Source: Alphaproteobacteria bacterium (lineage in GTDB: Bacteria; Pseudomonadota; Alphaproteobacteria; Bin95). Taken from it: a stretch of DNA of 64,000 nucleotides. The position numbers and the translations under genes are program-made. Location: assembly GCA_965220855.1 (NCBI GenBank), contig CBDCQY010000001.1:1384592-1448591 (forward strand), read 5' to 3'. Positions within the stretch are counted from its first letter, which is position 1. Each line of letters starts with the position of its first letter. Shown one piece after another: positions 2,439 through 60,800 of the stretch. The notes below the pieces were generated by a model that did no database searches, had not been told where the DNA came from, and saw only the letters and a program-made list of their open reading frames with translations.

Positions 2439-3161
2439 ATGCTGCGCTTCGACGGCTATCGGGTGCTGGTGACGGGCGGGTCGAGCGGCATCGGCAATGC
2501 CATCGCGACCGCCTTTCGCGACGCCGGGGCCGAGGTGGTCGCCACCGGCACGAAGCCTCGCGACGCCTATACCAGCGACCTGGAGGGCATCGACTTCCGC
2601 ACGGTCGATCTGGGCGAGGCCGGTCAGCGCGAGGCGCTGGCGGCCGGCCTCGACCGGCTGGACGTGCTGGTCAACAATGCCGGCATGGTGGCCTGGCGGC
2701 GCGCGGAATATGCGCCCGAGACCTTCCGCCGCGTGGTCGAGGTCAATCTCGACGCCGGCTTCCATCTGGCGGTGCTGCTGCGCGACCGGCTGGCGGCGCG
2801 GCCGGGCTCGGTCGTCAATCTCTCGTCCATGACCGCCTTCGCCGGCAGCCAGGGCAATCCCGCCTATGGCGCCAGCAAGGCGGCGATCGTGCAGTTGACC
2901 AAGACGCTGGCGGTCGCCTGGGGCGGCGAGGGCGTGCGCGTCAACGCCATCGCGCCCGGCTATGTGCACACGCAGATGACCGACCGCTTCAAGCGGAACG
3001 CCGAGGCAGACCGCGCCATCGCCGCCGGCACGCCGCTCGGCCGCTGGGGCCGGCCGGAAGACATGGCCCGCGTGGCGCTCTTCCTCGCCTCAGACCTCGC
3101 CGGCTTCGTCACCGGCCAGACCATCGCCGTCGATGGCGGCTACGGCGCCGCCCTCGGCTGA
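2439..3161 (+). CDS. SDR family NAD(P)-dependent oxidoreductase
   Basis: MLRFDGYRVLVTGGSSGIGNAIA...NNAG...YGASKAA contains the TGxxxGIG and YxxxK motifs. ATG at 2439 is preceded by GAAGGG. The longer ORF starting at 2331 is an upstream extension. Confidence 0.85.
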   Translation: MLRFDGYRVLVTGGSSGIGNAIATAFRDAGAEVVATGTKPRDAYTSDLEGIDFRTVDLGEAGQREALAAGLDRLDVLVNNAGMVAWRRAEYAPETFRRVVEVNLDAGFHLAVLLRDRLAARPGSVVNLSSMTAFAGSQGNPAYGASKAAIVQLTKTLAVAWGGEGVRVNAIAPGYVHTQMTDRFKRNAEADRAIAAGTPLGRWGRPEDMARVALFLASDLAGFVTGQTIAVDGGYGAALG

Positions 3162-3207
3162 CGGCGCGGATCTGCGGCTTGCTGGCGCGGTCACAAATGC
3201 TTTTCGT

Positions 3208-3236
3208 TTGCTTGATATTCCAGCGCCTGCTAGTAT
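3208..3236 (+). promoter_or_regulatory. putative sigma70-like promoter (TTGCTT-17 bp-TAGTAT) for autotransporter copy 1
   Basis: The -35/-10 hexamers have 17-bp spacing, and their positions and sequences are conserved upstream of copy 2 (6732-6760) despite divergence in the surrounding sequence. Confidence 0.35.
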
Positions 3237-3285
3237 TGTGAGCATATTCGACGTGACGCCGGTAGGGCTGCTTCTGGGGCAGAAA

Positions 3286-6200
3286 ATGACAACTTTACTT
3301 CACAGAGCGCCTGTGCTGCGGGGCCTGCTTTGGTCCGCGCTTCTGGCCTGCGCGCTGATCGCCAGTCCGGCCTGGTCTCAATCTACCGGGGAGTGCAATG
3401 CCGGCGGTGGCGAAGGTGGAGATGGTCACCCTAAAGCAGATCCGCAGGGGACGGTCACGAAGCTGGCGGCATCGAATAAATACCGGATTGACGTGACCTG
3501 GCCGCGAGCCGACTTTACAGAAACCAAAAGATGTGACGAGACGAACTGGCATTCTTCGGAACTGGCGGTCGGAGATGGACAGACTTGCTATGTACAGCCC
3601 GAGGAGACCCAAGAACCGATTCGAGGAACCAATGCGGGCGGAAGCCTGCGAATTGACGTTACGCGAATCAGTTCGGCTGCCGAGCGCGATTGCAGTTATT
3701 CATCCGCTGGACGATATGAGGCTAAACTGCTTGCGGAAGATGATCTTCAAATCAGAGTATATACCATTTGCGGCTTCGCCGCTGACTTCAGCAACCCCGG
3801 CGACGCTTGCGCGTCCGATGTCCGAACCTTGAGCATCGACTCCGCGCCGCGCTTCGTAGAGTCGATTCCGGACCGGACGTGGAAGCAGCAGGAGGCGATT
3901 GCGACGGTTACGCTGCCTGTGGCCAGCGGCGGCGACGCGCCGTTCACCTATGCGTTGACACCGACGCCGCCGGCGGGGCTTGTATTCGACGCCGCCGCCC
4001 GGACGATCGCCGGCGCGCCGACCGACGCGCAGGCGTCCACGACCTACACCTACAAGGCGACCGACAACGACGGCGACGCCGTGGAACTGGTCTTCCAATT
4101 GGAGGTGCTTGCGCCGCCGACCTTCGGCGCCGAGAGCGTCGGCGATCAAAGTTGGGCAAGCAACAGCGCCATCCAGCCGCTCACCCTGCCCGCAGCAACG
4201 GGCGGCCTCCTTCCGTTGACCTACACGCTGAGGCCGGCGCTGCCGGACGGCGTTTCGTTCGACCCTACGACCCGGCGGATTTCCGGCGCGCCCACGGTCG
4301 CGCAGACTACGACGACCTACACCTATACCGCCACCGACAGCGATACGCCCGCCGATATGGCGACGCTTACCTTCACCATCGCGGTGTCCGGGGAGTTGAC
4401 CTTCGGTGGCGGCAATATCGAGGATCGGACCTACAGCACGGGGCTGGAAATTGCGCCGCTGCAGCTGCCCGCAGCGGCGGGCGGCGATCCTCCGCTGGTC
4501 TATACGCTCACGCCGCCGCCGCCGGCGGGGCTTGTATTCGACGCCGCCACCCGGCGACTGTCCGGCGCGCCGTCCACGCCGCAGGTCGCGACCGCCTACA
4601 CCTACACGGTGACGGACGGCCATGGCGCCACGGCGACGCTCGGCTTCGCCATTGCCGTTGACGAGAACAGCCGCCCGAGCTTCGGCGGCGCCGTCATCGA
4701 CGACCGGACCTACAGCCAGGGGCTGGCTATTGCGACCGTGCAACTGCCCGCGGCAACAGGCGGCAACGGTCTGCTGACCTACACGCTGACAGGCGCTCTG
4801 CCGATCGGGCTGTCGTTCGACGCCGCCAGCCGGCAGATCGCTGGCGCGCCGTCGAGTCTCCAGGCGGCGACGGGCTACACCTACATGGCGACCGACCGCG
4901 ACGGCGAGAGCGTGGCGCTGAACTTCACCATTGCGGTGGAGACCGACAGCAGCCCGAGCTTCGGCGGCGTCGGCGTCCCCGACCAGAACTATGCTCGCGG
5001 CGAAGAGATCGAGCCATTACAACTGCCCGCCGCGACCGGCGGCAATGGCGTGCTTACCTATGCGCTGACGCCGGCGCCGCCGGCGGGCCTCGCCCTCGCC
5101 AGCCGGCGGCTCAGCGGCGCGCCGACCGGCGCGCAGGCCGCCGCGACTTATACTTGGCGGGCGACCGACCGCGACGGCGACACGGCCATGCTGACCTTCG
5201 CCATCGCCGTGGAGGAAACCACGGAGGAGATGCGCCGGCTGGCGTGGGACGTGCTGGCGGATATAGGTCGGGCGTCGCTGGCGAGCGCGGCGGATACGAT
5301 CCACCAGCGCCTCGACACGCCGCCGGACGCGACCATGAAGCTGGCCGGCCAAAGAGTCGAGCTGATGTCTCTTGCATCGGGAAGTTTCCAGTGGCCGAAC
5401 CGCAGGGCTGTAAGCCAGTGGCTGAACGCTGACACCCTGCTCGCCCGGAGCGCTTTCCTTTTGCCGCTTGCGAAGGGCGACGGCGCGCGGTCGGACTGGA
5501 CCTTCTGGGGCCGTGGCGATCTACGCCGCTTCGAGGGCGGGCGCCAGCGGGCGAGCCATGAAAGCTCGCTCGCCTCCGGCTGGCTCGGCCTTGACGCGCA
5601 GCTGGGCGACGGCCTGCTGGCGGGCGCGGCCCTTTCGCGCAGCCGGAGCGAGACCGACTGGCGTCTGGCGGAGGACAAGGGCGAAATCGAGACCTCTCTC
5701 AACAGCGTCTATGGCTATATGCAGAAGAAGCTGGCTGCGGGCGGGGCGCTGCACGCTGCGGTCGGCGTCGGTTACGGCGATATGGAGCATGCGCCCGCCG
5801 GCGAGGATCGGACGAGGGCGGATCTGGACATGCTGCTGGCCTTGGCGGGAGGCCGCTGGCCGGCGGCGCGGAGCGGCGGTCTGGCGCTGTCGGTCACCGG
5901 CGATGCGGGTCTGGCGCGCATGGAGACCGATGGCGACGGCGACGACAGCCCGATCGCGGGTCTCAAGGCGGAGGTTTGGCGGCTGCGCGCCGGTCTGGAG
6001 GCGGCGCATGACGGTTTGATGCTGGCGGACACCGGTTCTGGCCTCCGGCTGACGCCGCTTCTGTCGCTCGCGCTCCGGCAGGATGGCGGCGACGGACAGA
6101 CCGGAACCGGCCTGGAGGCCGGGGCGCGCTTTGCCTTCGCCGGTCCGGGATCGCGCCTCGGCTTGGACGTGCATGGCCATTGGCTGGCGCTGCATTCCGA

Positions 6201-6606
6201 AAGCAGCCGCCGTGAGTGGGGCGCTGGTCTGCAAGCGACCTTGAGGCCGGATGTTGGCGGCCGGGGCCTCTCGCTCTCGCTCGGCCCGCGCTGGGGCGCG
6301 CCGGGTGGAAGCATGGACGCGTTGCGGAGCGACGACGCCTTCTCCGGGAGCGCTGCGCCGACGGACCGGGCTTCTCTGGCCGCCGGCGTCGCCTGGGGCA
6401 TGGGCGTGGCCGATGGCGGACTGCTGTCGCCCTTCATGGAACTGGACCTGGCCGGGGGCGAGGACGGCCGTCGGCGCTACAGCGCCGGAGCGGAACTGGG
6501 CCTGGCCGAGCAGCGGGTCCGGGCCCGACTGGCGGCCGAATGGATCGACGACAGCGCGGAAGGCAACGAAACCGGCATCGGCGTTCGCTTGCGTCTGCGC
6601 TTCTGA
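3286..6606 (+). CDS. type Va autotransporter adhesin, copy 1: Sec signal, Cys-rich tip domain, ~8 putative-Ig (He_PIG/cadherin-like) repeats, C-terminal beta-barrel translocator
   Basis: ATG at 3286 gives MTTLLHRAPVLRGLLWSALLACALIASPAWSQ as signal peptide. Repeats have the pattern LPxAxGGxxPLTYTL...GLxFDxxTRxxSGAPT...TYTYTATD. The C-terminus shows WTFWGRGDLRRFEG and alternating beta-strand patterning and ends ...GVRLRLRF, the aromatic terminus of an autotransporter barrel. Confidence 0.85.
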   Translation: MTTLLHRAPVLRGLLWSALLACALIASPAWSQSTGECNAGGGEGGDGHPKADPQGTVTKLAASNKYRIDVTWPRADFTETKRCDETNWHSSELAVGDGQTCYVQPEETQEPIRGTNAGGSLRIDVTRISSAAERDCSYSSAGRYEAKLLAEDDLQIRVYTICGFAADFSNPGDACASDVRTLSIDSAPRFVESIPDRTWKQQEAIATVTLPVASGGDAPFTYALTPTPPAGLVFDAAARTIAGAPTDAQASTTYTYKATDNDGDAVELVFQLEVLAPPTFGAESVGDQSWASNSAIQPLTLPAATGGLLPLTYTLRPALPDGVSFDPTTRRISGAPTVAQTTTTYTYTATDSDTPADMATLTFTIAVSGELTFGGGNIEDRTYSTGLEIAPLQLPAAAGGDPPLVYTLTPPPPAGLVFDAATRRLSGAPSTPQVATAYTYTVTDGHGATATLGFAIAVDENSRPSFGGAVIDDRTYSQGLAIATVQLPAATGGNGLLTYTLTGALPIGLSFDAASRQIAGAPSSLQAATGYTYMATDRDGESVALNFTIAVETDSSPSFGGVGVPDQNYARGEEIEPLQLPAATGGNGVLTYALTPAPPAGLALASRRLSGAPTGAQAAATYTWRATDRDGDTAMLTFAIAVEETTEEMRRLAWDVLADIGRASLASAADTIHQRLDTPPDATMKLAGQRVELMSLASGSFQWPNRRAVSQWLNADTLLARSAFLLPLAKGDGARSDWTFWGRGDLRRFEGGRQRASHESSLASGWLGLDAQLGDGLLAGAALSRSRSETDWRLAEDKGEIETSLNSVYGYMQKKLAAGGALHAAVGVGYGDMEHAPAGEDRTRADLDMLLALAGGRWPAARSGGLALSVTGDAGLARMETDGDGDDSPIAGLKAEVWRLRAGLEAAHDGLMLADTGSGLRLTPLLSLALRQDGGDGQTGTGLEAGARFAFAGPGSRLGLDVHGHWLALHSESSRREWGAGLQATLRPDVGGRGLSLSLGPRWGAPGGSMDALRSDDAFSGSAAPTDRASLAAGVAWGMGVADGGLLSPFMELDLAGGEDGRRRYSAGAELGLAEQRVRARLAAEWIDDSAEGNETGIGVRLRLRF

Positions 6607-6708
6607 GCTACGCCTCCCGGATTGCGCGCTGAATGGGGACGGCCGCCGGAACGGTCGATGAGGTCGCCAACGCCCTTCAGAGGCCCGTGCAGCGCCTCGG
6701 GCGAGCTG
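6607..6708 (-). pseudogene. remnant of the 3' region of the coxL-like gene, a duplication scar (last 23 bp plus an internal ~60-bp block)
   Basis: Positions 6607-6629 match 10687-10709 (the coxL stop region). Positions 6642-6701 match coxL 11141-11200, which encodes LPEALRGPLEGVGDITDRSGG. About 420 bp between the two blocks is deleted. Antisense ORF 6477..6740 translates to ...SPEALHGPLKGVGDLIDRSGG. Confidence 0.7.
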
Positions 6709-6810: not shown

Positions 6811-9800
6811 ATGACAACTTTGCTTGACAGAGCGCCTGTGCTGTGGGGCCTGCTTTGGCCAGCGCTGGTGGCCTGCGCGCTGATCGCCAGCCCGGCCTGG
6901 TCGCAGTCCCAGCAGTGCGAGTCTGGCGGTGAAGGTTCATCTCATCACCCTAAAGCAGAACCGAAGGGGACGATCACGAAGCTGGCGGCGGCTAACGAAT
7001 ACCGGATTGAGGTGGCTTGGCCGCTCGCCAGATTTACGGAAGACGGCAGCGTCTGCTCCAGCACGACCTGGCATTATCCGTTTCTGTCAGACGCGGGCTC
7101 ACGAAGTTGCCAAATCGACCCCGTTAGCGACCACGCCATTGATGGAGACAATTCAGGCGGGAGTCTGCAAGTCGATGTCACACGGATCGACTCGGGTAAC
7201 CCGAGTTGCGACTATATAAGCACAGGGCGATACAGGGCCAGCCTGCGCGAGGAAGATAGTCTAGGTATCAACATATATACCATATGCAGCCTTAGCGCAA
7301 ATACCTTTAGAAACAGATTCGATGCTTGCGAGTCCGATTTTGTGACCCTTAGTCTTGCTTCCGCGCCGCGCTTCGAAGAGACGATCTCCGACCGGACCTG
7401 GGAGCAGTATGCGGCGATTGAGACGGTGACGCTGCCTGTGGCCAGCGGCGGCGAAGCGGCGCTCGTCTATACGCTGACCCCGGCGCTGCCGGCAGGACTT
7501 TCGTTCGACGCCGACGCCCGGACGATCGCCGGCGCGCCGACCGACGCGCAGGCGTCCACGACCTACACCTACAAGGCGACCGACAATGACGGCAATGCCG
7601 CATTGCTTACCTTCCAGCTGGAGGTGGTGACGCCGCCGCTGACCTTCGGCGGCGAGAGCATCGACGATCAGACCTGGCCCATCGGCCGCGCCATCCAGCC
7701 GCTCACCCTGCCCGCAGCGGCGGGTGGCCTCCTGCCGTTGACCTACACGCTGAGGCCGGCGCTGCCGGACGGCGTTTCGTTCGACCCTTCGACCCGGCGG
7801 ATCTCCGGCGCGCCCACGGTCGCGCAGACTGCGACGACCTACACCTATACCGCCACCGACAGCGATACGCCCGCCGATATGGCGACGCTTACCTTCACCA
7901 TCGCGGTGTCCGGGGAGCTGACCTTCGGTGGCGGCAATATCGAGGATCGGACCTACAGCACGGGGCTGGAAATTGCGCCGCTGCAGCTGCCCGCAGCGGC
8001 GGGTGGCGATCCTCCGCTGGTCTATACGCTCACGCCGCCGCCGCCGGCGGGGCTTGTATTCGACGCCGCCACCCGGCGACTGTCCGGCGCGCCGTCCACG
8101 CCGCAGGTCGCGACCGCCTACACCTACACGGTGACGGACGGCCATGGCGACACGGCGACGCTTGGCTTCGCCATTGCCGTTGACGCGAACAGCCGCCCGA
8201 GCTTCGGCGGCGCCGTCATCGACGACCGGACCTACAACCAGGGGCTGACTATTGCGACCGTGCAACTGCCCGTTGCAACAGGCGGCAACGGTCCGTTGAC
8301 CTACACGCTGAGGCCGGCGCTGCCGGACGGCGTTTCGTTCGACCCTTTGACCCGGCGGATTTCCGGCGCGCCCACAGTCGCGCAGACTACGACGACCTAC
8401 ACCTATACCGCCACCGACAGCGATACGCCCGCCGCTGTGGCGACGCTTACCTTCACCATCTTGGTGTCCGGGGAGCTGACCTTCGATGGCGGCAATATCG
8501 AGGATCGGACCTACAGCACGGGGCTGGAAATTGCGCCGCTGCAGCTGCCCGCAGCGGCGGGTGGCGATCCTCCGCTGGTCTATACGCTCACGCCGCCGCC
8601 GCCGGCGGGGCTTGTATTCGACGCCGCCACCCGGCGACTGTCCGGCGCGCCGTCCACGCCGCAGGTCGCGACCGCCTACACCTACACGGTGACGGACGGC
8701 CATGGCGCCACGGCGACGCTCGGCTTCGCCATTGCCGTTGACGCGAACAGCCGCCCGAGCTTCGGCGGCGCCGTCATCGACGACCGGACCTACAGCCAGG
8801 GGCTGGCTATTGCGACCGTGCAACTGCCCGCGGCAACAGGCGGCAACGGTCCGCTGACCTACACGCTGACAGGCGCTCTGCCGACCGGGCTGTCGTTCGA
8901 CGCCGCCAGCCGGCAGATCGCTGGCGCGCCGTCGAGTCTCCAGGCGGCGACGGGCTACACCTACATGGCGACCGACCGCGACGGCGAGAGCGTGGCGCTG
9001 AACTTCACCATTGCGGTGGAGACCGACAGCAGCCCGAGCTTCGGCGGCGTCGGCGTCCCCGACCAGAACTATGCTCGCGGCGAAGAGATCGAGCCATTAC
9101 AACTGCCCGCCGCGACCGGCGGCAATGGCGCGCTTACCTATGCGCTGACGCCGGCGCCGCCGGCGGGCCTCGCCCTCTCCAGCCGATGGCTCAGCGGCGC
9201 GCCGACCGGCGCGCAGGCCGCCGCGACTTATACTTGGCGGGCGACCGACCGCGACGGCGACACGGCCATGCTGACCTTCGCCATCGCCGTGGAGGAAACC
9301 ACGGAGGAGATGCGCCGGCTGGCGTGGGACGTGCTGGCGGATATAGGTCGGGCGTCGCTGGCGAGCGCGGCGGATACGATCCACCAGCGCCTCGACACGC
9401 CGCCGGACGCGACCATGAAGCTGGCCGGCCAAAAAGTCGAGCTGATGTCTTTTGCATCGGGAAGTTTCCAGTGGCCGAACCGCAGGGCTGTAAGCCAGTG
9501 GCTGAACGCTGACACCCTGCTCGCCCGGAGCGCTTTCCTTTTGCCGCTTGCGAAGGGCGGCGGCTCGCGGTCGGACTGGACCTTCTGGGGCCGTGGCGAT
9601 CTACGCCGCTTCGAGGGCGGGCGCCAGCGGGCGAGCCATGAAAGCTCGCTCGCCTCCGGCTGGCTCGGCCTTGACGCGCAGCTGGGCGACGGCCTGCTGG
9701 CGGGCGCGGCCCTTTCGCGCAGTTGGAGCGAGACCGACTGGCGTCTGGCGGAGGACAAGGGCGAAATCGAGACCTCTCTCAACAGCGTCTATGGCTATAT

Positions 9801-19701: not shown

Positions 19702-20904
19702 TCAGTCGGCGGCGTCCTCGTCGGGGGGCAGGTCGCCGGCGCCCAGCGTGCGGTCCTCGAAGCCGGCCGGAACCTCGCGCCCGCTGTCGGTGAAGGCGCG
19801 GCGCACGGCCTCCACATTGCCTTCCAGCACGCGCAGGCGATTGTCGCGCACGAAGGCGTTGGACGCGTGGAGCATGTCGGTCGAGCCCTGGAAGCGGGGC
19901 GCCACATGGCGGGCGAACAGCTCGTAGCTCTTCATGGTCTGCTCGCGATTGGCCCATTCGTTCGCGCGGAAGAGGATGCCGCCGAAGCCGCCCTGGGAGA
20001 GCTCCAGCAGATATTCGATGCCGCGAATGGCGGTCTCGGGCGAGCCGATCAGCGTGGTGCCCATCTTCACGCCCTCGCGCACCGGGTCGTCGGCCCGGCC
20101 CGGCGGGCGGCCGAGCGTCTGCTCGAAATAGGTCACGGTCTCCAGCCGCTCGCCGGCCTTCACCTGCCGCAGCGCCTCCTCGTCGTCCTCCGCGAGATGC
20201 ATGTTGACCACCACGCGCCAGTCTTGGCGGTCCATGGTCTTGCCATGCTTCGCGGCCTCGTCTTCGGCGATCCGCCATTGCTTCGCCAGCATTTCCGGTC
20301 CGCCCGGAATGCCCGCGCCAATGGACAGCACGCCGAGCCCGTGCCGGCCCGCCGCCATCATGCCGAAGGGGGTGATGGTGGAGGCGACCGCGATCGGGAA
20401 GCGCCCCTCGGTCCAGGGCGCCAGATGCAGCCGCGCCTCGCGCAGCGTGAACCAGTCGGTCTCCATCGTCACCGGCTCGCCGCAGTCCAGCAGCGCGACG
20501 ATGGCGTCCAGCGCCTCGATCATGCGCCGGCGCTGGTCGGTCGGCTTGATGCCCATCATGTAGGCGTCGGTGATCAGCGCGCCCGGCCCGCAGCCCAGCA
20601 TGGTGCGTCCCCGGCTCATATGGTCCAGCTGCACGAAGCGCTGCGCCACCAGCAGCGGGTGGTGATAGGGCAGGGAGGTGACGCCGGAGCCGAGCCGGAT
20701 ATGGCGGGTGCGCTGCAGGGCCGCGCCGATGAAGATCTCGGGCGCGGCGATGATCTCCCAGCCGGCGGAGTGATGCTCGCCGATCCAGGCCTCGTCATAG
20801 CCCAGATGGTCGAGCCACTCGATCAGCTCCAGGTCCCGGTCCATGGCCAGCGTCGGGTTCTCGCCGAGCGCATGGAAGGGGGCGAGGAAGACGCCGAAAC
20901 TCAT
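19702..20904 (-). CDS. LLM-class flavin-dependent (luciferase-like) monooxygenase
   Basis: A ~400-aa luciferase-like TIM-barrel family pattern (MSFGVFLAPFH...). Convergent with dppF with a 6-bp gap. Confidence 0.8.
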   Translation of the reverse strand: MSFGVFLAPFHALGENPTLAMDRDLELIEWLDHLGYDEAWIGEHHSAGWEIIAAPEIFIGAALQRTRHIRLGSGVTSLPYHHPLLVAQRFVQLDHMSRGRTMLGCGPGALITDAYMMGIKPTDQRRRMIEALDAIVALLDCGEPVTMETDWFTLREARLHLAPWTEGRFPIAVASTITPFGMMAAGRHGLGVLSIGAGIPGGPEMLAKQWRIAEDEAAKHGKTMDRQDWRVVVNMHLAEDDEEALRQVKAGERLETVTYFEQTLGRPPGRADDPVREGVKMGTTLIGSPETAIRGIEYLLELSQGGFGGILFRANEWANREQTMKSYELFARHVAPRFQGSTDMLHASNAFVRDNRLRVLEGNVEAVRRAFTDSGREVPAGFEDRTLGAGDLPPDEDAAD

Positions 20905-21039
20905 GCCGCGCCGCGCCATGACGATCTCCCGATATGGCAGGAAAGGGCGTCATCATGCCGCAAACCCACCCCCGACGCCAGCGACGGGAGCGGGGCGCGC
21001 GCGCCGGAGGGTAGCCGCCTCCGAGCGGACACGCCCCGG

Positions 21040-21288
21040 CTATCTGTGGCGTGCGGCGCGCGCAAGCAACAAGCGCAGGTCCTCTCTTGGCGGCCCGGAT
21101 TTTGCCAGGGCCATTGCTCTGGATCGCTCCACGTCGTCCAGCACTTCCGCGATCAATCCGGAATCCCCATCCTCAAGCGCCGCTTCGAGAAAAGCCACGA
21201 CGTCGTCCGGGTCTTCGAGATAGTCCGCAGGGTCCCACGGACGCGACATCTCCCTTACTGCAGCCGCCAACTCTTTATCTTCATTCAT
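21040..21288 (-). CDS. orphan, C-terminally truncated addiction-module antidote (HigA-like HTH antitoxin remnant)
   Basis: WDPADYLEDPDDVVAFLEAALEDGDSGLIAEVLDDVERSRAMALAKSGPPREDL matches the conserved antidote-family pattern (DYL...AYLEAALEDGD...ARGM..A...G..RE.LY.AL). Similarity ends inside the HTH recognition helix. The C-terminal half is missing and no toxin gene is adjacent. The start is at MNEDKE, with GGAGA 7 nt upstream. Confidence 0.4.
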   Translation of the reverse strand: MNEDKELAAAVREMSRPWDPADYLEDPDDVVAFLEAALEDGDSGLIAEVLDDVERSRAMALAKSGPPREDLRLLLARAARHR

Positions 21289-21315
21289 AGCCGTCTCCAT
21301 ATAGACCCGCCCAGC

Positions 21316-22152
21316 CTAGCGGACCAGGGTGCGGTGCATGATGCGCTCCTGGGTGCGATCATAGTCGTGGCGGACCATGTGGAGGGCTTGGGCGTTGTCC
21401 CAGAGCAGCACGTCGCCCGGCCGCCAGCGGTGGCGATAGACGAAGCGCTCCTGCTCGCAATGCGCCGTCAGGCGGGCCATGAGCGCCTGCGAGGCCTCCA
21501 CGTCCAGGCCGTCGAAGCGCTCGATGCGGATCGGGTTGAAATAGAGCGCCTTTTGCCCGCTCACCGGATGCGGGCGCACCAGCGGGTGGCGGGCGCTCGG
21601 CGCCTCGCGCGCCTCCTCGGCGGTCATCTTCGCCATACGGCGCGGCGCGAAGCGGCTGTTGTAGATGTGGTGGCCGACCAGCGGCTCCACCTCCCGGCGG
21701 GTCGCCTCGTCGAGCGCCTCATAGGCCGCGCGCTGATTGGTGAAGCTGGTGTCGCCGCCCCGGTCGGGCAGCCGGATGGCGCGCAGCATGGTGCCGCGCG
21801 GCGGCTCCGGCAGGTGGGAGTGGTCGGTGTGCCAGGTGCCGCCCGTATCCAGCGGCTTGCCGTCGCCGAGCGTGTCGCGATGCCGGCTGGAGAGCAGGCG
21901 GATCTGCGGGAAGCCCTCCACCCGATATTCCGGGCGCTGCACCGGCTGCGCCACATTGTCGCCGAAGAGGCCGGCCAGCGCCACGAAGCCCGCCGGGTCG
22001 AGCGCCATGTCGCGGAACACCAGCACCACCCGGTCGGTCCAGGCCTCCTGCAAGCGCCGGCGCGCCGCCGCGTCGCCGCTATGGCGGGCGATGTCCAGCC
22101 CCGACACTTCCGCGCCGATGACGCCCGGCAGGGCGCGAATCTCGAAATCCAT
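21316..22152 (-). CDS. TauD/TfdA-family Fe(II)/2-oxoglutarate-dependent dioxygenase
   Basis: WHTDHSH places His and Asp in the facial triad, with typical length and order. Confidence 0.85.
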   Translation of the reverse strand: MDFEIRALPGVIGAEVSGLDIARHSGDAAARRRLQEAWTDRVVLVFRDMALDPAGFVALAGLFGDNVAQPVQRPEYRVEGFPQIRLLSSRHRDTLGDGKPLDTGGTWHTDHSHLPEPPRGTMLRAIRLPDRGGDTSFTNQRAAYEALDEATRREVEPLVGHHIYNSRFAPRRMAKMTAEEAREAPSARHPLVRPHPVSGQKALYFNPIRIERFDGLDVEASQALMARLTAHCEQERFVYRHRWRPGDVLLWDNAQALHMVRHDYDRTQERIMHRTLVR

Positions 22153-47628: not shown

Positions 47629-48559
47629 AGCCGGGCATGACCTCCGTCGCGAAGCGCTCCAGGGTCGCGAGCGCCCGATCGACGCCCGGCTCGTGGATCA
47701 GTCCCGGAATCGTGTACCAGGGATTGAGCACGATATGGCCGAGGCCGATGGCGCGCGCCGCATCGAGATTGCGGCGGATTCGGTCGCGGGAGCCGATCAG
47801 GGAGAAGGCGTCGCCGAGGAAGGGCGTCGGGTCGAGGTCGAAGGCGAGCGGCGTGTGCAGCGAGCGCGCGATGCCGGCCGGGTCGCGCCCGGCGTCGGCC
47901 GCCATGGCGTCGAGCGTCTTCTGCCGGCGGGCCAGATCGTCAAGCGTCCATTGCACCGAGCCCGGCCGGCGCGCCGAGGTGATCGGATGCCAGCCGTCGC
48001 CGTAGCGCACGACGCGTTCGAGCGCGCGCTCATTGTTGCCGCCGATCCAGATGGGCGGCTTGCGGGCCGGGCGCGGCTCGAAGGCGAAATCCTCGAAGCG
48101 GTAGAACTCGCCCTCGAAGTCGTTGGGGCCGGGGGACCAGAGCCGGTCGAGAATGCGCAGCATCTCGTCGGCGCGCGCGCCGCGCCGGGCGAAGGGAATG
48201 TCGAGGATGTCGTATTCCTCGCGGATCCAGCCGAAGGCGACGCCGAAAATGGCGCGCCCGCCGGAGAGGTCGTCGATGCTGGCCATCTCCTTGGCGAGCG
48301 TGACCGGGTGGCGATAGGGCAGCACGATCACCGTGGTGCCGAGCCGCACCCGGCGGGTGAGGCCGGCGAGCAGGCCGAGCGTGCTGAACAGGCCATAGAC
48401 GCGCTCCGAGAAGCGCTCGACGAAGGGGCGCGGGACGATCACATGGTCGATCGCCCAGATGGAGTCGAAACCCGCCTCCTCCGCCATCCGCGCCATCCGC
48501 TCCAGGCTCTCCCGCGAGGCGAAAGCGCCATGCTGCGGCATCACCACTCCGAACTTCAT
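47618..48559 (-). CDS. LLM-class (luciferase-like) flavin/F420-dependent oxidoreductase
   Basis: MKFGVVMPQH...IWAIDHV... TIM-barrel LLM pattern. Overlaps the prpD-like start by 11 bp. Confidence 0.8.
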   Translation of the reverse strand: MKFGVVMPQHGAFASRESLERMARMAEEAGFDSIWAIDHVIVPRPFVERFSERVYGLFSTLGLLAGLTRRVRLGTTVIVLPYRHPVTLAKEMASIDDLSGGRAIFGVAFGWIREEYDILDIPFARRGARADEMLRILDRLWSPGPNDFEGEFYRFEDFAFEPRPARKPPIWIGGNNERALERVVRYGDGWHPITSARRPGSVQWTLDDLARRQKTLDAMAADAGRDPAGIARSLHTPLAFDLDPTPFLGDAFSLIGSRDRIRRNLDAARAIGLGHIVLNPWYTIPGLIHEPGVDRALATLERFATEVMPGYGD

Positions 48560-48650
48560 GTCGCTTCCTCCCTCCGATTCGGACCCGCCGCGCCGATAGT
48601 GCGCCCGGTTGCCTGTCCCGCGCGATCACGGCGCCAGACGGCTCGCCAGC

Positions 48651-49220
48651 CTAGACCAAATGCAACTCTTCCCGCTCCAGCCTCAACATAACCCTCTCGT
48701 CCGGAGTAACCCGTCGCTCCATGTCTCGAAGCAACTTCGACAGGCAACGGGTAAGAAATGTCTCCCAATCTCCCCTGTTCCTGAACTCAATTCCCGATTT
48801 TTCTGCAACACTGACCAGAACCGCTTTCTTCGATTCTTGGACCAGCCGCAGAATATTCAGCACCGTTCCCGGACTCCTGCCGTCCCAGATCATCAGCCCG
48901 AAATCAGCCTGCCGCGCCATTTCACGGTCCTTGGCGGCGTAAAACTGAAAATTTCTTTCACGCTCCTCTGTATCGACGCTGTGAGTTGGCCATTGACCGA
49001 TATTATTGCGGCTTGCACCACCCGAGCAGTAAACGATCACCTTGTCGTAATTTGCTTTGGCCAGGTGTTGTTGCGCCGCCTTATCTGCTCCGTTCGCATC
49101 CCCGACGAGGATTACGAATCCCCGATTCACGACATTGTCGATCCGCGCCTTCGCCTCCATCGGCAGACATGCGATCCGCCGGGAACCCCCGACAAATATC
49201 GCGCTCACCATCTGCTCCAT
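48651..49220 (-). CDS. standalone SLOG-superfamily (DprA/Smf-like Rossmann) domain protein in a low-GC islet
   Basis: IFVGGSRRI...VILVGDANGADKAAQQHLAKANYDKVIVYCSGG matches the DprA/SLOG pattern (VGSRx...SGxAxGxDxxAHxxAL...TIaV). The gene is ~52-55% GC against ~70% in its flanks, and its GC3 is far below host genes. Confidence 0.5.
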   Translation of the reverse strand: MEQMVSAIFVGGSRRIACLPMEAKARIDNVVNRGFVILVGDANGADKAAQQHLAKANYDKVIVYCSGGASRNNIGQWPTHSVDTEERERNFQFYAAKDREMARQADFGLMIWDGRSPGTVLNILRLVQESKKAVLVSVAEKSGIEFRNRGDWETFLTRCLSKLLRDMERRVTPDERVMLRLEREELHLV

Positions 49221-51885: not shown

Positions 51886-54800
51886 TCAGAAGTTGAAGCG
51901 AAAGTTGAAGTGGAGGCGGCGGTTGTCAGCGGAGCCGCCGCGGTTCTCATGGCCGGCGATCAGTTCCAGATCGATATGGCGGGCGGCGGCCTGGAAGGCG
52001 AGGCCGGCCTCCAGTTTGCTCCGGTCGCCCGTCTCCTCCGAGAGGCGCAGCAGGGGTGACAGCAGGCCGGATGAGGCCGGCAGCTGGAAGCCGTAGCGGG
52101 CCTCCAGTTCCAGCAGGGTTGCATCGTTGCTTCCGAAGCTGGCTTCGTCATAGTCGAGATCGTCCGCCAGCATCGCGGACCTGTCCGCGCGCGGACCGGT
52201 CGTCAGGCGCACCGACCAGGAGAGGCCGCGCCCGCGGGCGCCCGGCGCCAGCCGCGCCTCTAGGCTCGCGCCCCATTCGCGCACGCCACGCCCGGAATGC
52301 GCCGCCAGCCAGCGGCCGCTCGCATCCAGGCTGAAGCGCGAGCCGGGGTCCGTGAGGCGCCCGCCGACCGAAACCTCGACGCCGGAGCCCGTCACCCCGT
52401 CGCCGCCGTCCTGGCGCAGCGTCAGTGCGCCGTGCGGCGCCAGCGTCAGTTCGGAGCTGGAGAACACAAATCCGTCATGTTCGGCTTCCACGCCGACGCC
52501 GAGGCGCCAACTCGCCGCCTTCAGCCCGCCGATCGAGGTCGCTCGGGAGCCGTCGGTCTCGATTTGCGCCAGGCCCAACTCGCCGGTTGCAGAGAGAGCG
52601 AAGCGGTCGTGCTGCGCTACGGGCATGCGCCCGCCGGCCGACAAGGCTAGCAATTCGAGGTCGGCCCGCTCCACCGCTCCTTCTCTCGGGCGATGCTCCA
52701 TCTCGCCCTGCCCGGCTCCGAGCACCAGGCGCAACCGGCCGCCGCCTTCCGTCGTCATCTGCAGATAGGGCCAGACCGCGGTCACCGAGGTCTCGACGCT
52801 GCCGCTGTCCTCGTCGATGCGGTAGTCGGTCTCGCCGTCGCTCATCGAGAGTCCGAGGCCGGCCAGCAGCCGTTCGTCCAGCCGCGCGTCCAGCCCCAGC
52901 CAGCCGGCCCGCTGCTCCCCTTCATAGCGCCCCGTCTCCGCCGGGCCCTCGAACTGCCGCCAGTCGCCCCGGCCCCAGACCGTCCAGGCCGCGCCGCTGT
53001 CCGCAGTTTCGTCCGACGCAGCCAGCGGCAGCGTGAAGGCGCTGCCGCCCAACAGGGTCTCGGCGCTCACCGCGTCATGCCGCCCGGCCGCCCCGCCCGG
53101 GGTTCGCACGATCCGGTTGCCCGTTTCGGAAGCGGCGAGTTGGCGCGCGTCGCCTACCCGGCGCCCGGCAAGCGACAGCGCCGGCGCGCCCGGCGTCGCA
53201 TCGAACCGCAAGCGGATCGCATCCGTCGCGCTCGACAAGGCGGTCCGCGCGATCCTGGCGAGCATCGCCTTCAGCACTTGCCGCTCGACCTCCGGCGGGG
53301 CGTCCTCGATCTCGTTGGTCACCGTCACCGTCACCGACCGGTCCGCCATATTGCCGTCGGCGTCGGTCGCGGTCAGCGTGTAGGCGTAGCCATTGTCCGC
53401 GTCGCTGTCGTCCGGCTTCTCGAAGTCCCGCCCGGCCAGCGTCACCGTGACGCCGCTGTTGCTCGCGCCCGAGAGCGCGAACAGGTCCGCATCGGCGCCC
53501 GAGAGCGACCAGGCGACGGCGCCGATCGGCGCATCGCCCGTCAACACCGCCGCGCCGGCATAGTCGGCGTTCTCCGCCACGCTGGCGTTGGCCACGCCGC
53601 CGAGAGCCAGCGCCGCCGCCTCGATGACATCCGTCACCGTCACCGTCACCGCAAGGCTCGTGATGTTGTCGTCATCGTCGGTCGCGGTCAGCGTGTAGGC
53701 GTAGCCATTGTCCGCGTCGCTGTCGCCCGGGTTCTCATAGTTGCGCGCGGCCATCGACACCGTAACGCCGCTGTTGCTCCCGCCCGAAAGCGCGAACAGG
53801 CCGGCGTCCGCCCCCGAGAGCGACCAGGCGACGGCGCCGATCGGCGCATCGCCCGTGAGCGTCGCCATTCCGCTGTAGCCGGCGTTCTCCGCCACGCTGG
53901 CGTCGCCCACCCCCGCGATGGCCAGAGCCGCAGTCTCGTCCGCGTCCGTCACCGCGATCGTCACCGAGGCGTTCGTGGTGTTGCTGTCGTCGTCGGTCGC
54001 AGTCAGCGTGTAGGCGTAGCTGTTGCCGCCGTCGGCGTCGCTCGGGTTCTCGAAGTCCTTCGGGGTCATCGACACCGTGACGCCGCCATTGCTCGCGCCC
54101 GAGAGCGTGAACAGGTCCGCGTCGGCGCCCGAAAGCGACCAGGAGACCGCGCCGATCGGCCCGCCCGTGAGCGTCGCCGTTCGGCTATAGGCCGCGCCCT
54201 CCGCCACGCTGGCGTCAGCCACCCCCGCCAAGGTCAGCGTCGCGGTCTCGATCGCGTCCGTCACCGTGACGGTCACCGTCCGGCTCACCGTGTTTTCGTC
54301 ATCGTCGGTGGCGGTCAGCGTGTAGATATAGCTGTTGTCGGCGTCGGCGTCGGTCGGGTTTTCGAAGTCGCGCACCGTCAGCGTCACCGTGACCCCGCTG
54401 TTGCTCTCGTCCGAGAGTTCGAACAGCTCTCCGTCATCGCCGTCGAGCTTCCAGGCGACGGAGCCGATCGGCGCCTCGCCCGCCATCACCGCCGCGCCGC
54501 TATAGACGGCGTTCTCCGCCACACTGGCGTCGGCCACGCCCGCCACCGCGAGCGCAGCGACCTCTTTCGCGTCCGTGACCGTCACCGTGAAGACATCCGA
54601 GGTCACCGTGTCGCCGTCGCGATCCGTCGCCTTCAGCGTGTATTCGTAACGGTTGTCCCCGTCGCTGTCGGCGGGGTTCTCGAAGTCCTGCTCCGCCAGC
54701 GTCACGGTCGCCTCGGTGGCGCTCTCGCCCGACAGCGCGAACTTCCCGGCGTCGGCTCCGCCAAGCTCCCAGTTCACCGGCGCGTCGGCCCCGGCCAGCG

Positions 54801-57800
54801 TCGCCTTGTCGGTGAAGGTCCCGTTCTCCTCCACTTCGCCGCTGTCGAGCTCCGTCAGGACCAGTATCCGGTCATCGTCCGCGACCGTCACCGTCACGCT
54901 GCCCGCGACCTCGTCATATTCCACGCCCGACGCCGCCAGCGCCACCGTCACGGTCTCGTTCGCCGCATCGTCGCCATCGTCATCGACCGGCGAGACCGTC
55001 ACCGTCTGCGCCATCTCCCAGTCGTCGGCGGTGAAGGTCAGCTCCGCCGGCGAAACCGTCGCCGCGCCCGCGTCACCGCTCGACACCGCCACCGTCACCG
55101 CCGCCGTCGGCACATGCGAAAGCGCAACCGTGAATGTCCCGGCGCCCTGGCCTTCGCTCAGCGCCAGCGCGCCATTCGTCAGCCCCGCCAGACTCAAGGA
55201 CGCGATCTCGTCATCCGCAACCGTCACCGAAACGCTGCCGGCGGCCTCGTCATATTCCACGCCCGACGCCGCCAGAGACACCGACAGGGCCTCGTTCCCC
55301 GCATCCGCGTCATCGACCGGCGTCACCGTCACCGTCTGCGCCACATTCCAGTTCGTCGGCGTGAATGACAGGGTCGTCGGCGTCGCCGCCGCCGCGCCCG
55401 CGTCACCGCTGGCTACCGCCACCGTCACCGCCGCCGTCGGCACATGCGAAAGCGCAACCGTGAATGTCCCGGCAGAGCCGCCCTCCGTCAGCGACACCGG
55501 ACCCCCGGCAACCGCCAGCGACGCCGTCTCGTCATCCGCAACCGTCACCGAAACGCTGCCCGCGACCTCGTCATATTCCACGCCCGACGCCGCCAGAGAC
55601 ACCGACAGGGCCTCGTTCCCCGCATCCGCGTCATCGACCGGCGTCACCGTCACCGTCTGCGCCGTATTCCAGTTCGTCGGCGTGAATGACAGGGTCGCCG
55701 GCGCCGCCGCCGCCGCGCCCGCGTCACCGCTGGCTACCGCCACCGTCACCGCCGCCGTCGGCACATGCGAAAGCGCAACCGTGAATGTCCCGGCAGAGCC
55801 GCCCTCCGTCAGCGACACCGGACCCCCGGCAACCGCCAGAGACGCCGTCTCGTCATCCGCAACCGTCACCGAAACGCTGCCGGTAACCGATCCATACTCC
55901 GTCGCCCCGGACGCCGTGAGCGAGACCGACAGGGCCTCGTTCCCCGCATCCGCATCATCGACCGGCGTCACCGTCACCGTCTGCGCCGCATTCCAGTTCG
56001 TCGGTGTGAACGACAGGGTCGCCGGCGTCGCCGCCGCCGCGCCCGTATCACCGCTGGCTACCGCCACCGTCACCGCCGCCGTCGGCACATGCGAAAGCGC
56101 AACCGTGAATGTCCCGGCGGAGCCGCCCTCCGTCAGCGACACAGGACCCCCGGCAACCGCCAGAGACGCCGTCTCGTCATCCGCAACCGTCACCGAAACG
56201 CTGCCGGTAACCGATCCATACTCCGTCGCCCCGGACGCCGTGAGCGAGACCGACAGCGACTCGTTCCCCGCATCCGCATCATCGACCGGCGTCACCGTCA
56301 CCGTCTGCGCCGTATTCCAGTTCGTCGGCGTGAATGACAGGGTCGTCGGCGTCGCCGCCGCCGCGCCCGCGTCACCGCTGGCTACCGCCACCGTCACCGC
56401 CGCCGTCGGCGCATGCGAAAGCGCAACCGTGAATGTCCCGGCAGAGCCGCCCTCCGTCAGCGCCACCGGACCCCCGGCAACCGCCAGAGACGCCGTCTCG
56501 TCATCGTCAACCGTCACCGAAACGCTGCCCGCGACCTCGTCATATTCCACGCCCGACGCCGCCAGAGACACCGACAGGGCCTCGTTCCCCGCATCCGCGT
56601 CATCGACCGGCGTCACCGTCACCGTCTGTGCCGCATTCCAGTTCGTCGGCGTGAATGACAGGGTCGCCGGCGTCGCCGCCGCCGCGCCCGTATCACCGCT
56701 GGCTACCGCCACCGTCACCGCCGCCGTCGGCACATGCGAAAGCGCAACCGTGAATGTCCCGGCAGAGCCGCCCTCCGTCAGCGACACCGGACCCCCGGCA
56801 ACCGCCAGAGACGCCGTCTCGTCATCCGCAACCGTCACCGAAACGCTGCCCGCGACCTCGTCATATTCCACGCCCGACGCCGCCAGAGACACCGACAGGG
56901 CCTCGTTCCCCGCATCCGCGTCATCGACCGGCGTCACCGTCACCGTCTGCGCCGCATTCCAGTTCGTCGGCGTGAATGACAGGGTCGTCGGCGTCGCCGC
57001 CGCCGCGCCCGTATCACCGCTGGCTACCGCCACCGTCACCGCCGCCGTCGGCACATGCGAAAGCGCAACCGTGAATGTCCCGGCGGAGCCGCCCTCCGTC
57101 AGCGCCACCGGACCCCCGGCAACCGCCAGAGACGCCGTCTCGTCATCCGCAACCGTCACCGAAACGCTGCCCGCGACCTCGTCATATTCCACGCCCGACG
57201 CCGCCAGAGACACCGACAGCGACTCGTTCCCCGCATCCGCGTCATCGACCGGCGTCACCGTAACCGTCTGCGCCGCATTCCAGTTCGTCGGCGTGAATGA
57301 CAGGGTCGTCGGCGTCGCCGCCGCCGCGCCCGCGTCACCGCTGGCTACCGCCACCGTCACCGCCGCCGTCGGCACATGCGAAAGCGCAACCGTGAATGTC
57401 CCGGCAGAGCCGCCCTCCGTCAGCGCCACCGGACCCCCGGCAACCGCCAGAGACGCCGTCTCGTCATCGTCAACCGTCACCGAAACGCTGCCCGCGACCT
57501 CGTCATATTCCACGCCCGACGCCGCCAGAGACACCGACAGGGCCTCGTTCCCCGCATCCGCGTCATCGACCGGCGTCACCGTCACCGTCTGCGCCGCATT
57601 CCAGTTCGTCGGCGTGAATGACAGGGTCGTCGGCGTCGCCGCCGCCGCGCCCGCGTCACCGCTGGCTACCGCCACCGTCACCGCCGCCGTCGGCACATGC
57701 GAAAGCGCAACCGTGAATGTCCCGGCAGAGCCGCCCTCCGTCAGCGACACCGGACCCCCGGCAACCGCCAGAGACGCCGTCTCGTCATCCGCAACCGTCA

Positions 57801-60800
57801 CCGAAACGCTGCCCGCGACCTCGTCATATTCCACGCCCGACGCCGCCAGAGACACCGACAGGGCCTCGTTCCCCGCATCCGCGTCATCGACCGGCGTCAC
57901 CGTCACCGTCTGCGCCGCATTCCAGTTCGTCGGCGTGAACGACAGGGTCGTCGGCGTCGCCGCCGCCGCGCCCGTATCACCGCTGGCTACCGCCACCGTC
58001 ACCGCCGCCGTCGGCACATGCGAAAGCGCAACCGTGAATGTCCCGGCGGAGCCGCCCTCCGTCAGCGACACCGGACCCCCGGCAACCGCCAGAGACGCCG
58101 TCTCGTCATCCGCAACCGTCACCGAAACGCTGCCCGCGACCTCGTCATATTCCACGCCCGACGCCGCCAGAGACACCGACAGGGCCTCGTTCCCCGCATC
58201 CGCGTCATCGACCGGCGTCACCGTAACCGTCTGCGCCGCATTCCAGTTCGTCGGCGTGAATGACAGGGTCGTCGGCGTCGCCGCCGCCGCGCCCGCGTCA
58301 CCGCTGGCTACCGCCACCGTCACCGCCGCCGTCGGCACATGCGAAAGCGCAACCGTGAATGTCCCGGCGGAGCCGCCCTCCGTCAGCGACACCGGACCCC
58401 CGGCAACCGCCAGAGACGCCGTCTCGTCATCCGCAACCGTCACCGAAACGCTGCCCGCGACCTCGTCATATTCCACGCCCGACGCCGCCAGAGACACCGA
58501 CAGGGCCTCGTTCCCCGCATCCGCGTCATCGACCGGCGTCACCGTCACCGTCTGCGCCGCATTCCAGTTCGTCGGCGTGAATGACAGGGTCGCCGGCGTC
58601 GCCGCCGCCGCGCCCGTATCACCGCTGGCTACCGCCACCGTCACCGCCGCCGTCGGCACATGCGAAAGCGCAACCGTGAATGTCCCGGCGGAGCCGCCCT
58701 CCGTCAGCGCCACCGGACCCCCGGCAACCGCCAGAGACGCCGTCTCGTCATCCGCAACCGTCACCGAAACGCTGCCGGTAACCGATCCATACTCCGTCGC
58801 CCCGCTCGCCGTGAGCGAGACCGACAGGGCCTCATCCCCCGCATCCGCATCATCGACCGGCGTCACCGTCACCGTCTGCGCCGCATTCCAGTTCGTCGGC
58901 GTGAATGACAGGGTCGTCGGCGTCGCCGCCGCCGCGCCCGCGTCACCGCTGGCTACCGCCACCGTCACCGCCGCCGTCGGCACATGCGAAAGCGCAACCG
59001 TGAATGTCCCGGCAGAGCCGCCCTCCGTCAGCGACACCGGACCCCCGGCAACCGCCAGAGACGCCGTCTCGTCATCCGCAACCGTCACCGAAACGCTGCC
59101 CGCGACCTCGTCATATTCCACGCCCGACGCCGCCAGAGACACCGACAGGGCCTCGTTCCCCGCATCCGCATCATCGACCGGCGTCACCGTCACCGTCTGC
59201 GCCGTATTCCAGTTCGTCGGCGTGAATGACAGGGTCGTCGGCGTCGCCGCCGCCGCGCCCGTATCACCGCTGGCTACCGCCACCGTCACCGCCGCCGTCG
59301 GCACATGCGAAAGCGCAACCGTGAATGTCCCGGCAGAGCCGCCCTCCGTCAGCGCCACCGGACCCCCGGCAACCGCCAGCGACGCCGTCTCGTCATCCGC
59401 AACCGTCACCGAAACGCTGCCCGCGACCTCGTCATATTCCACGCCCGACGCCGCCAGAGACACCGACAGGGCCTCGTTCCCCGCATCCGCGTCATCGACC
59501 GGCGTCACCGTCACCGTCTGCGCCGTATTCCAGTTCGTCGGCGTGAACGACAGGGTCGTCGGCGTCGCCGTCGCCGCGCCCGCGTCACCGCTCGACACCG
59601 CCACCGTCACCGCCGCCGTCGGCACATGCGAAAGCGCAACCGTGAATGTCCCGGCGGAGCCGCCCTCCGTCAGCGCCACCGGACCCCCGGCAACCGCCAG
59701 AGACGCCGTCTCGTCATCGTCAACCGTCACCGAAACGCCGCCCGTGACCGATCCATATTCGGCCGCCCCGCTCGCCGTGAGCGAGACCGACAGGGCCTCG
59801 TTCCCCGCATCCGCGTCATCGACCGGCGTCACCGTCACCGTCTGCGCCGCATTCCAGTTCGTCGGCGTGAATGACAGGGTCGTCGGCGTCGCCGCCGCCG
59901 CGCCCGTATCACCGCTCGACACCGCCACCGTCACCGCCGCCGTCGGCACATGCGAAAGCGCAACCGTGAATGTCCCGGCAGAGCCGCCCTCCGTCAGCGA
60001 CACAGGACCCCCGGCAACCGCCAGCGACGCCGTCTCGTCATCCGCAACCGTCACCGAAACGCTGCCCGCGACCTCGTCATATTCCACGCCCGACGCCGCC
60101 AGAGACACCGACAGCGACTCGTTCCCCGCATCCGCATCATCGACCGGCGTCACCGTCACCGTCTGCGCCGTATTCCAGTTCGTCGGCGTGAACGACAGGG
60201 TCGTCGGCGTCGCCGCCGCCGCGCCCGCGTCACCGCTCGACACCGCCACCGTCACCGCCGCCGTCGGCACATGCGAAAGCGCAACCGTGAATGTCCCGGC
60301 GGAGCCGCCCTCCGTCAGCGACACCGGACCCCCGGCAACCGCCAGAGACGCCGTCTCGTCATCCGCAACCGTCACCGAAACGCTGCCGGCGGCCTCGTCA
60401 TATTCCACGCCCGACGCCGCCAGAGACACCGACAGCGACTCGTTCCCCGCATCCGCGTCATCGACCGGCGTCACCGTCACCGTTTGCGCCGTATTCCAGT
60501 TCGTCGGCGTGAACGACAGGGTCGTCGGCGTCGCCGCCGCCGCGCCCGTATCACCGCTGGCTACCGCCACCGTCACCGCCGCCGTCGGCACATGCGAAAG
60601 CGCAACCGTGAAGCTCCCGGCAGAGCCGCCCTCCGTCAGCGCCACAGGACCCCCGGCAACCGCCAGAGACGCCGTCTCGTCATCGTCAACCGTCACAGCC
60701 ACCCCGTCCGTGACCGATCCATATTCGGCAGCCCCGCTCGCCGTGAGCGAAACCGACAGGGCCTCATCTCCCGCATCCGCGTCATCGACCGGCGTCACCG

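Follow-up and report, generated by a model that had tools for sequence, protein, structure and literature searches.

A truncated HI1420-type antidote gene between TauD and LLM monooxygenase genes as a probable late-stage relic of a toxin-antitoxin cassette

In the window, the 64-kb stretch of alphaproteobacterial DNA analyzed here, a small open reading frame on the minus strand lies between two complete genes of the same orientation, a TauD-family dioxygenase upstream (21316..22152, minus strand, GC3 0.93) and an LLM-class (Bac_luciferase) flavin monooxygenase downstream (19702..20919, minus strand, GC3 0.92). Both identities were confirmed by precomputed Pfam matches on identical proteins, and the orthologues of TauD align over residues 1-277. 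As listed, the small frame has 86 codons (21300..21040), from an ATG at 21300 to a TAG stop at 21042-21040, and it corresponds to the 86-aa ORF that an earlier note on this DNA had placed at 21040-21300. A second in-frame ATG (21288-21286) falls on the start codons of all close relatives in the DNA alignment and stands 6 nt after a GGAG Shine-Dalgarno-like motif (21295..21298, minus strand), so this ATG was probably the ancestral start, giving an ORF of 82 aa (21040..21288, minus strand). The gene callers of public assemblies made the same choice (P0001, 82 aa, 100% identical to the window ORF), and the start given in the note is refined accordingly. The frame is not an assembly artefact, since two other assemblies contain its sequence as well, the first with 100% identity over 11.9 kb and the second with 99.8%, indels being the only differences; both copies come from the same strain.

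The flanks of this ORF are short. The TauD stop (21316-21318) is separated from the first ATG by a 15-bp spacer (21301..21315), the distance given in the earlier note, which has no room for a toxin gene, carries no trace of one and marks the upstream breakpoint. In alignments with the toxin-antidote junctions of relatives, homology with the window starts at the ribosome-binding site, about 21295..21298. The LLM gene starts 120 bp after the ORF's stop. The ~65 nt that precede it (20920..20985, minus strand) constitute the native LLM upstream region, as they are also conserved ahead of an LLM orthologue of 92% identity (L109) that has different neighbors and whose genome has no such ORF there. 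The similarity to L109 ends at a GC-rich hairpin without a U-tract located right after the ORF's stop (20991..21038, minus strand, repeat I12), whose stability does not differ significantly from that of shuffled sequences (z = -1.76), and the alignment suggests that the downstream breakpoint of the foreign piece lies in or near this hairpin. As the LLM upstream region is native and TauD is complete to its last residues, the foreign piece would measure ~260-320 bp, from ~20990-21040 to ~21296-21315. No meaningful direct or inverted repeats, repeated copies within the window, tRNA genes or insertion-sequence ends were found flanking it, nor were sigma-70-like promoters, intrinsic terminators or a credible Rfam family.

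The base composition of the ORF departs from that of its surroundings. Its GC3 is 0.655 against 0.89-0.93 in four neighboring genes, and the local GC content falls to 0.58 at this point in a background of 0.71; the antidote genes of its relatives have a GC3 of 0.65-0.72, the same range as the window ORF. Judged by this difference in GC3, the ~300-bp piece is of horizontal or foreign origin.

The ORF product was compared with protein families and sequence databases. It matches the NCBIfam model TIGR02684 (E 2.8e-9, 37.1 bits) over profile positions 3-60 of 89 and the Pfam model PF21716 over positions 4-68 of 90, at 27.0 bits, which is exactly the gathering score of 27. Among the PHROGs it matches phrog_4268. 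A phmmer search against 1.84 billion representatives gave 575 matches at E<=1e-3, and all those inspected were antidote-family proteins. An NCBIfam scan at E<=1 returned TIGR02684 alone, with no match to the HigA model TIGR02607. The similarity to addiction-module antidotes that the earlier note had recognized is hence significant, the profile search it had proposed against TIGR02684 and HigA-like antidotes selects the former and not the latter, and the absence of similarity that it had named as grounds for rejection was not observed.

This homology is limited to the N-terminal part. The clearly homologous segment (21082..21288, minus strand), delimited by tblastn, TIGR02684 and alignments, covers an acidic N-terminal helix (WDPADYL...FLEAALEDGD), the first helix of the helix-turn-helix (HTH) and a shortened helix 2. 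The signature of the family, W-D-[PA]-A-[DE]-x-L ... Y-L-E-A-A-x-E-D-G-D, is present together with HTH helix 1, and nearly all the invariant or near-invariant N-terminal residues are retained (W, D, L, A, G, D), a Y to F replacement being the sole change. Helix 2 has lost two residues in the alignment (AMA--LAKSG, against GMTAVAAKAG in relatives), and the HTH turn reads G-P-P-R-E where relatives have G-L-G-R-E. The rest of the ORF (21040..21081, minus strand) is a degenerate recognition-helix segment with its stop (DLRLLLARAARHR and TAG), as judged from DNA and protein alignments and from the low model confidence, and the C-terminal tail of the 82-aa ORF reads ...REDLRLLLARAARHR. At the recognition-helix position the frame is still homologous (DLRLLLARA against SLYKALSRD(G), with 17 of 27 nt identical to locus L023 by hand count), yet the consensus residues of that helix have been replaced. 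The acidic N-terminal module has a pI of 4.05 and the tail (residues 63-82) a pI of 11.8.

Homology with the relatives fades at about the stop codon of the window ORF. With the intact antidote P0006 as a tblastn query, residues 1-71 align to the window at 56% identity, and none of four full-length antidotes aligned past residue ~71; in tblastn against plasmids, 65 of 65 matches were confined to query residues ~15-74. The earlier note had suggested looking in alternative frames downstream for a shifted C-terminal half, and neither the three-frame translation nor tblastn revealed one in any downstream frame. It had also stated that the N-terminal two-thirds of the antidote are conserved and that the match breaks off inside the recognition helix. 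The N-terminal homology and the truncation both stand, but what is kept is about half of a 149-aa ancestral protein, and the frame remains homologous through the recognition-helix position, so that the loss begins at the last HTH helix.

The profile scores point in the same direction. The ORF does not reach the TIGR02684 cutoff of 53.7 bits, and it covers positions 3-60 of the ~89 of the model, against 2-88 for intact members, which score 115-127 bits over that length. When the intact relatives are cut to profile positions 2-60, they still score 55-79 bits, against 36.9 for the window ORF, indicating that the retained part is itself extra-diverged; other truncated relatives score 52-62 bits. 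This unusual divergence, as read from the profile scores, would be expected under relaxed constraint, though divergence of the lineage could also account for it. A complete XRE-type HTH (helices 1-4) is not present, as the closing helix is absent, helix 2 is shortened and helix 3 is degenerate, and no TIGR02683 toxin is found directly upstream. Since the ORF falls short in score, coverage, HTH and toxin partner alike, it appears best classed as a dnstrm_HI1420-family fragment or pseudogene and not as a working member.

Structure predictions were compared for a full-length relative and the window ORF. The model of the full-length protein P0015 (pLDDT 84.7) consists of an N-terminal helix followed by four helices (18-31, 34-48, 50-57, 61-68 and 76-85) forming an XRE-like helical bundle, and it resembles HipB, C.AhdI and Mycobacterium tuberculosis HigA2 with target-normalized TM-scores of 0.54-0.70 over 54-66 aligned columns. 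No PDB chain of the antidote family could be detected by sequence similarity. In the model of the window ORF, only residues ~21-60 are confidently placed and residues 61-82 are of low confidence; helices 1 and 2 are merged and no HTH is formed, which is a prediction and not proof of instability. Helix 76-85 of the full-length model has no counterpart in the window ORF.

A tblastn search with four toxin queries gave no credible toxin homologue in the 64-kb window, in keeping with the earlier note, which had seen no toxin gene. One candidate (52131-52214, E 0.05-0.16) was put down to chance, as it sits in a 4024-aa gene on the other strand. This very long ORF (51886-63960, minus strand) consists of ~100-aa repeats, dozens in number and near-identical to one another (…ASLAVAGGPV.LTEGGSAGTFTVALSHVPTAAVTVAV.SGD…) followed by a non-repetitive C-terminal region, and it probably encodes a giant repeat adhesin or an autotransporter-like surface protein. 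Elsewhere in the window, a 189-aa ORF (48651-49220, minus strand) has a GC3 of 0.64, and the kilobase 48001-49000 has a GC content of 0.64 against the window average of 0.71, so this ORF may be another foreign gene. Two further kilobases of low GC, 3001-4000 and 7001-8000, fall within the 5′ parts of ORFs of 1157 and 1291 aa, both of which begin, or nearly begin, with a short MTTLL-RAP motif.

The intact members of the family come with a toxin. Three of three plasmid antidotes inspected (pWW0, a Roseobacter plasmid and a Martelella plasmid), of 98-113 aa, directly follow a RelE/ParE-family toxin gene. In 31 of 33 loci on viral contigs, the antidote aligned at least through the last HTH helix, with most or all of the toxin aligned and ending directly upstream. 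The toxins of intact members exceed the TIGR02683 cutoff.

The nearest relatives of the window ORF belong to a 149-aa antidote subfamily, with 54-62% identity over the retained part. Among the best 120 relatives, 60 are exactly 149 aa long, 87 have at least 140 aa and only three have fewer than 95 aa, these three being singletons, each with a different unrelated tail; no intact family of ~82 aa was found among these 120. The truncation proposed in the earlier note therefore survives the objection, raised there, that a full-length family of this exact short length might exist. Other short relatives (73, 75, 80 and 84 aa) lie within their contigs and are not cut by contig ends. The 90%-identity cluster of P0001 has one member.

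A ~50-aa C-terminal extension (GWxGGFxLPxxDLYVLSG...RRASDYR, residues ~100-149) is conserved in the 149-aa subfamily, where it was seen in P0003, P0006, P0298, P0300, P0307, P0330 and P0342, and it lies outside the 89-position family model. Directly after the 149-aa antidote there is a 210-aa gene without a Pfam match, found in L023 (3174-3806) and L143 (3473-4105) with 84% identity between the two; a remnant of it persists at the decayed locus L028 (5112-5231), and the window has no trace of it. The ancestral cassette may, on this gene order, have had three genes, for the toxin, the 149-aa antidote and the 210-aa protein. In some proteins, the N-terminal ~60 residues of the antidote are fused to unrelated C-termini, which are HicB-like (P0141), a tail common to P0062 and P0072, or Uma2-like (P0013/P0101). 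Such chimeras could be real domain shuffling, or frameshift or read-through artefacts of metagenome assemblies.

Seven loci, the window included, can be arranged as a series of increasing damage. Locus L023, the only fully intact example found in the 149-aa subfamily, has a 110-aa toxin (2370-2702; TIGR02683, 124 bits) overlapping the start of the intact 149-aa antidote P0006, then the 210-aa gene, with a Fic gene and two DDE transposase genes near P0006. In L143, toxin residues 38-94 have been deleted while the 149-aa antidote is intact and the 210-aa gene present; at 2843-2998 of this 7.8-Mb contig, toxin residues 1-37 are joined to 95-110, a clear snapshot of toxin-first inactivation. The toxin of L144 lacks its N-terminus, with residues 30-110 left, and the antidote ends at 84 aa. 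In L028, half of the toxin is left (residues 48-108), the antidote is frameshifted, and part of the 210-aa gene survives. An 18-residue toxin remnant and a 75-aa antidote are left in L024, and L026 has no trace of the toxin and a frameshifted antidote. The window, also without any trace of a toxin, has antidote residues 1-71 still recognizable and no 210-aa gene. The short forms have different endpoints, unrelated tails and unrelated contexts, and are thus independent decay products and not a short family. Along the series, inactivation of the toxin precedes that of the antidote, which is how toxin-antitoxin modules are expected to be lost, here illustrated for a specific, so far uncharacterized 149-aa antidote subfamily with a conserved 210-aa partner gene.

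To look at the history of the site itself, we inspected the neighborhoods of TauD and LLM orthologues. The TauD orthologues (80-85% identical) of 14 alphaproteobacterial metagenome-assembled genomes (MAGs) have no LLM, Glyoxalase_3 or antidote neighbors, and at the one such locus that was inspected, L004, TauD lies between an enoyl-CoA hydratase gene and lolD. The LLM relatives from JGI metagenomes (at most 81% identical) and the 92%-identical orthologue in L109 have other neighbors as well, and the TauD and LLM orthologues of relatives are not adjacent to each other. Among all the TauD and LLM orthologues examined, no relative showed an intact pair between the two genes, the comparison proposed in the earlier note, or an empty site. 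In one relative (L016, CAXXPN010000002.1), the TauD orthologue is split into residues 1-62 (2934-3119) and residues 60-277 (6001-6654), with ~2.9 kb between them, pointing to an insertion in the gene, perhaps of an IS element.

A sister genome, on an ENA contig of 1,801,921 bp, was compared at the protein level (P0286 (TauD), P0288, P0290, P0295, P0297 and P0003). It encodes MmcB-like, ECH, Abhydrolase_10, Glyoxalase_3 and TauD proteins 97.8-99.6% identical to those of the five window genes on the TauD side of the fragment, but neither the antidote ORF nor the two ABC ATPases beyond LLM have a mate there at 90% identity or more. Judged by these protein matches, the two genomes thus seem to have lost synteny recently at the TauD 3′ end, the position of the fragment. 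The same ENA contig as the sister TauD carries an intact 149-aa antidote (P0003).

On the whole, it is very probable that the window ORF has no function and is the late-stage remnant of a type II toxin-antitoxin cassette acquired by horizontal transfer. The homology, the truncation points, the missing toxin, the foreign composition and the decay series of the relatives are direct observations; what we infer from them is that the ORF has no function and in which order the site changed. The source would have been an HI1419/HI1420-type cassette, with a RelE/ParE-like toxin (TIGR02683, Gp49-like) ahead of an XRE-type HTH antidote (TIGR02684/PF21716), of the subfamily with 149-aa antidotes, in which the 210-aa gene follows in both loci with an intact antidote (L023 and L143). 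It would have been inserted between TauD and LLM, or left there by a rearrangement. Deletions would then have taken out all of the toxin, to a point ~25 bp short of the antidote start, together with everything beyond the recognition-helix position, leaving ~300 bp with the open frame and its ribosome-binding site. The toxin would have been lost first, as this is the only viable order, and the antidote, freed from selection, would then have eroded, presumably in place at the TauD/LLM site.

With the last HTH helix gone, two residues of helix 2 deleted, a Pro-Pro turn and the recognition-helix consensus lost, no DNA binding or autoregulation is expected, and the remnant, judged by its sequence, is almost certainly unable to bind DNA. 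Against its being a mere relic, 82 codons have stayed open, with GGAG 6 nt before the ATG and between two co-directional genes, and the remnant may on these grounds still be transcribed and translated; the retention of nearly all the family-invariant residues of its N-terminal helix likewise speaks against a mere relic. Of the three origins offered in the earlier note, the relic of a toxin-antitoxin module or eroded footprint of a mobile element agrees with the foreign codons, the missing toxin, the lost helix, the degenerate HTH and the graded decay in relatives, while a domesticated DNA-binding fragment finds no support, the HTH being incomplete.

The open frame could also have been kept by selection. 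In this case the acidic N-terminal ~60 residues would have been retained as a stand-alone toxin-neutralizing orphan antitoxin of the "anti-addiction" type, without DNA binding, acting on RelE/Gp49-type toxins from other genomic loci or from plasmids or phages that enter the cell; we regard this as unlikely. Toxin-first HigA-type antitoxins touch their toxins via N-terminal segments, an analogy that speaks for such a role, as do the open frame with its ribosome-binding site, the conserved signature residues, the presence of the same N-terminal module joined to other C-termini in some database proteins, and its retention in several independent short forms. Orphan antitoxins have moreover been proposed to neutralize toxins (PMC12654330). 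However, the 64-kb window has no toxin gene, the retained span scores 18-42 bits below equally cut intact members, and a GC3 of 0.655 against ~0.92 argues against long-term maintained expression. The sister genome lacks a mate at 90% identity or more, and the varied endpoints, unrelated tails and several out-of-frame remnants of the short relatives are as would be seen under random decay. We also know of no mapping of the toxin-binding region in the dnstrm_HI1420 antidote family, which, like the failure to find a solved structure for it, counts against this proposal. That the module is maintained as a free decoy against the RelE/Gp49-type toxins of incoming plasmids or phages, in anti-addiction or anti-defense, appears more doubtful still; if it were so, the recurrent survival of the same part in independent truncated copies would reflect selection and not chance.

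A domesticated small DNA-binding regulator of the TauD/LLM monooxygenase cluster is highly improbable. Its position between two co-directional metabolic genes, its descent from an HTH protein, the basic C-terminal tail (residues 63-82, pI 11.8) and the PHROGs family label "transcriptional repressor" would suit such a role, but the final HTH helix that would close the hydrophobic core is missing, helix 2 is short by two residues, the turn is Pro-Pro, the recognition-helix consensus is replaced and the model forms no HTH. In addition, the LLM upstream region is conserved in a genome without this ORF, and TauD and LLM orthologues elsewhere never have such a neighbor. The least credible proposal, that the ORF is intact and belongs to an antidote-like family of naturally short proteins, can draw on the short relatives (73, 75, 80 and 84 aa) lying inside contigs, but these are singletons with different endpoints, tails and genomic contexts, several of them with upstream toxin remnants and downstream out-of-frame C-terminal halves, at least 140 aa is the length of 87 of the best 120 relatives (exactly 149 aa for 60), and the 90%-identity cluster of P0001 contains that protein as its one member.

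Holding to the relic of a toxin-antitoxin cassette, we suggest that annotations flag the window ORF as a pseudogene or fragment and not as a working antitoxin or regulator. The remnant is of an already known kind, common and ordinary genomic debris; it provides a clean example of late-stage toxin-antitoxin erosion, situated between two native metabolic genes at an apparent break of synteny.

Among known systems, the HI1419/HI1420 pairs, such as that of Pseudomonas putida pWW0, are significantly similar over ~60 N-terminal residues, including WDPADYL, (Y/F)LEAA-EDGD and the first HTH helix; in contrast to them, the window copy has no toxin and no last HTH helix, and its helix 2 and recognition helix are degenerate. 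For one RelE/dnstrm_HI1420 pair, kill-rescue in E. coli confirmed toxin-antitoxin activity, and in marine MAGs dnstrm_HI1420 is reported to be the commonest domain among re-annotated hypothetical orphan antitoxins (PMC12654330). With the 149-aa subfamily (P0006, P0300 and P0003, from ENA/NCBI metagenome-assembled genomes), the window ORF has in common the N-terminal leader (MNE...) and the start-codon context, but it stops after roughly 71-80 of the 149 residues; the final HTH helix and the ~50-aa extension are gone, as are the accompanying toxin and 210-aa genes. The HigBA systems have the same toxin-then-antitoxin order and XRE-type HTH fold as the intact relatives of the window ORF, but they belong to a different sequence family, as TIGR02684 is matched and no HigA model is. 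Finally, chromosomal toxin-antitoxin systems are known to erode into truncated ORFs and DNA remnants, as described in a Photorhabdus study (PMC13617665). Like the orphan and eroded chromosomal antitoxins, the window copy is an orphan truncated ORF, and nothing essential sets it apart from them beyond its late stage and its location inside a metabolic cluster.
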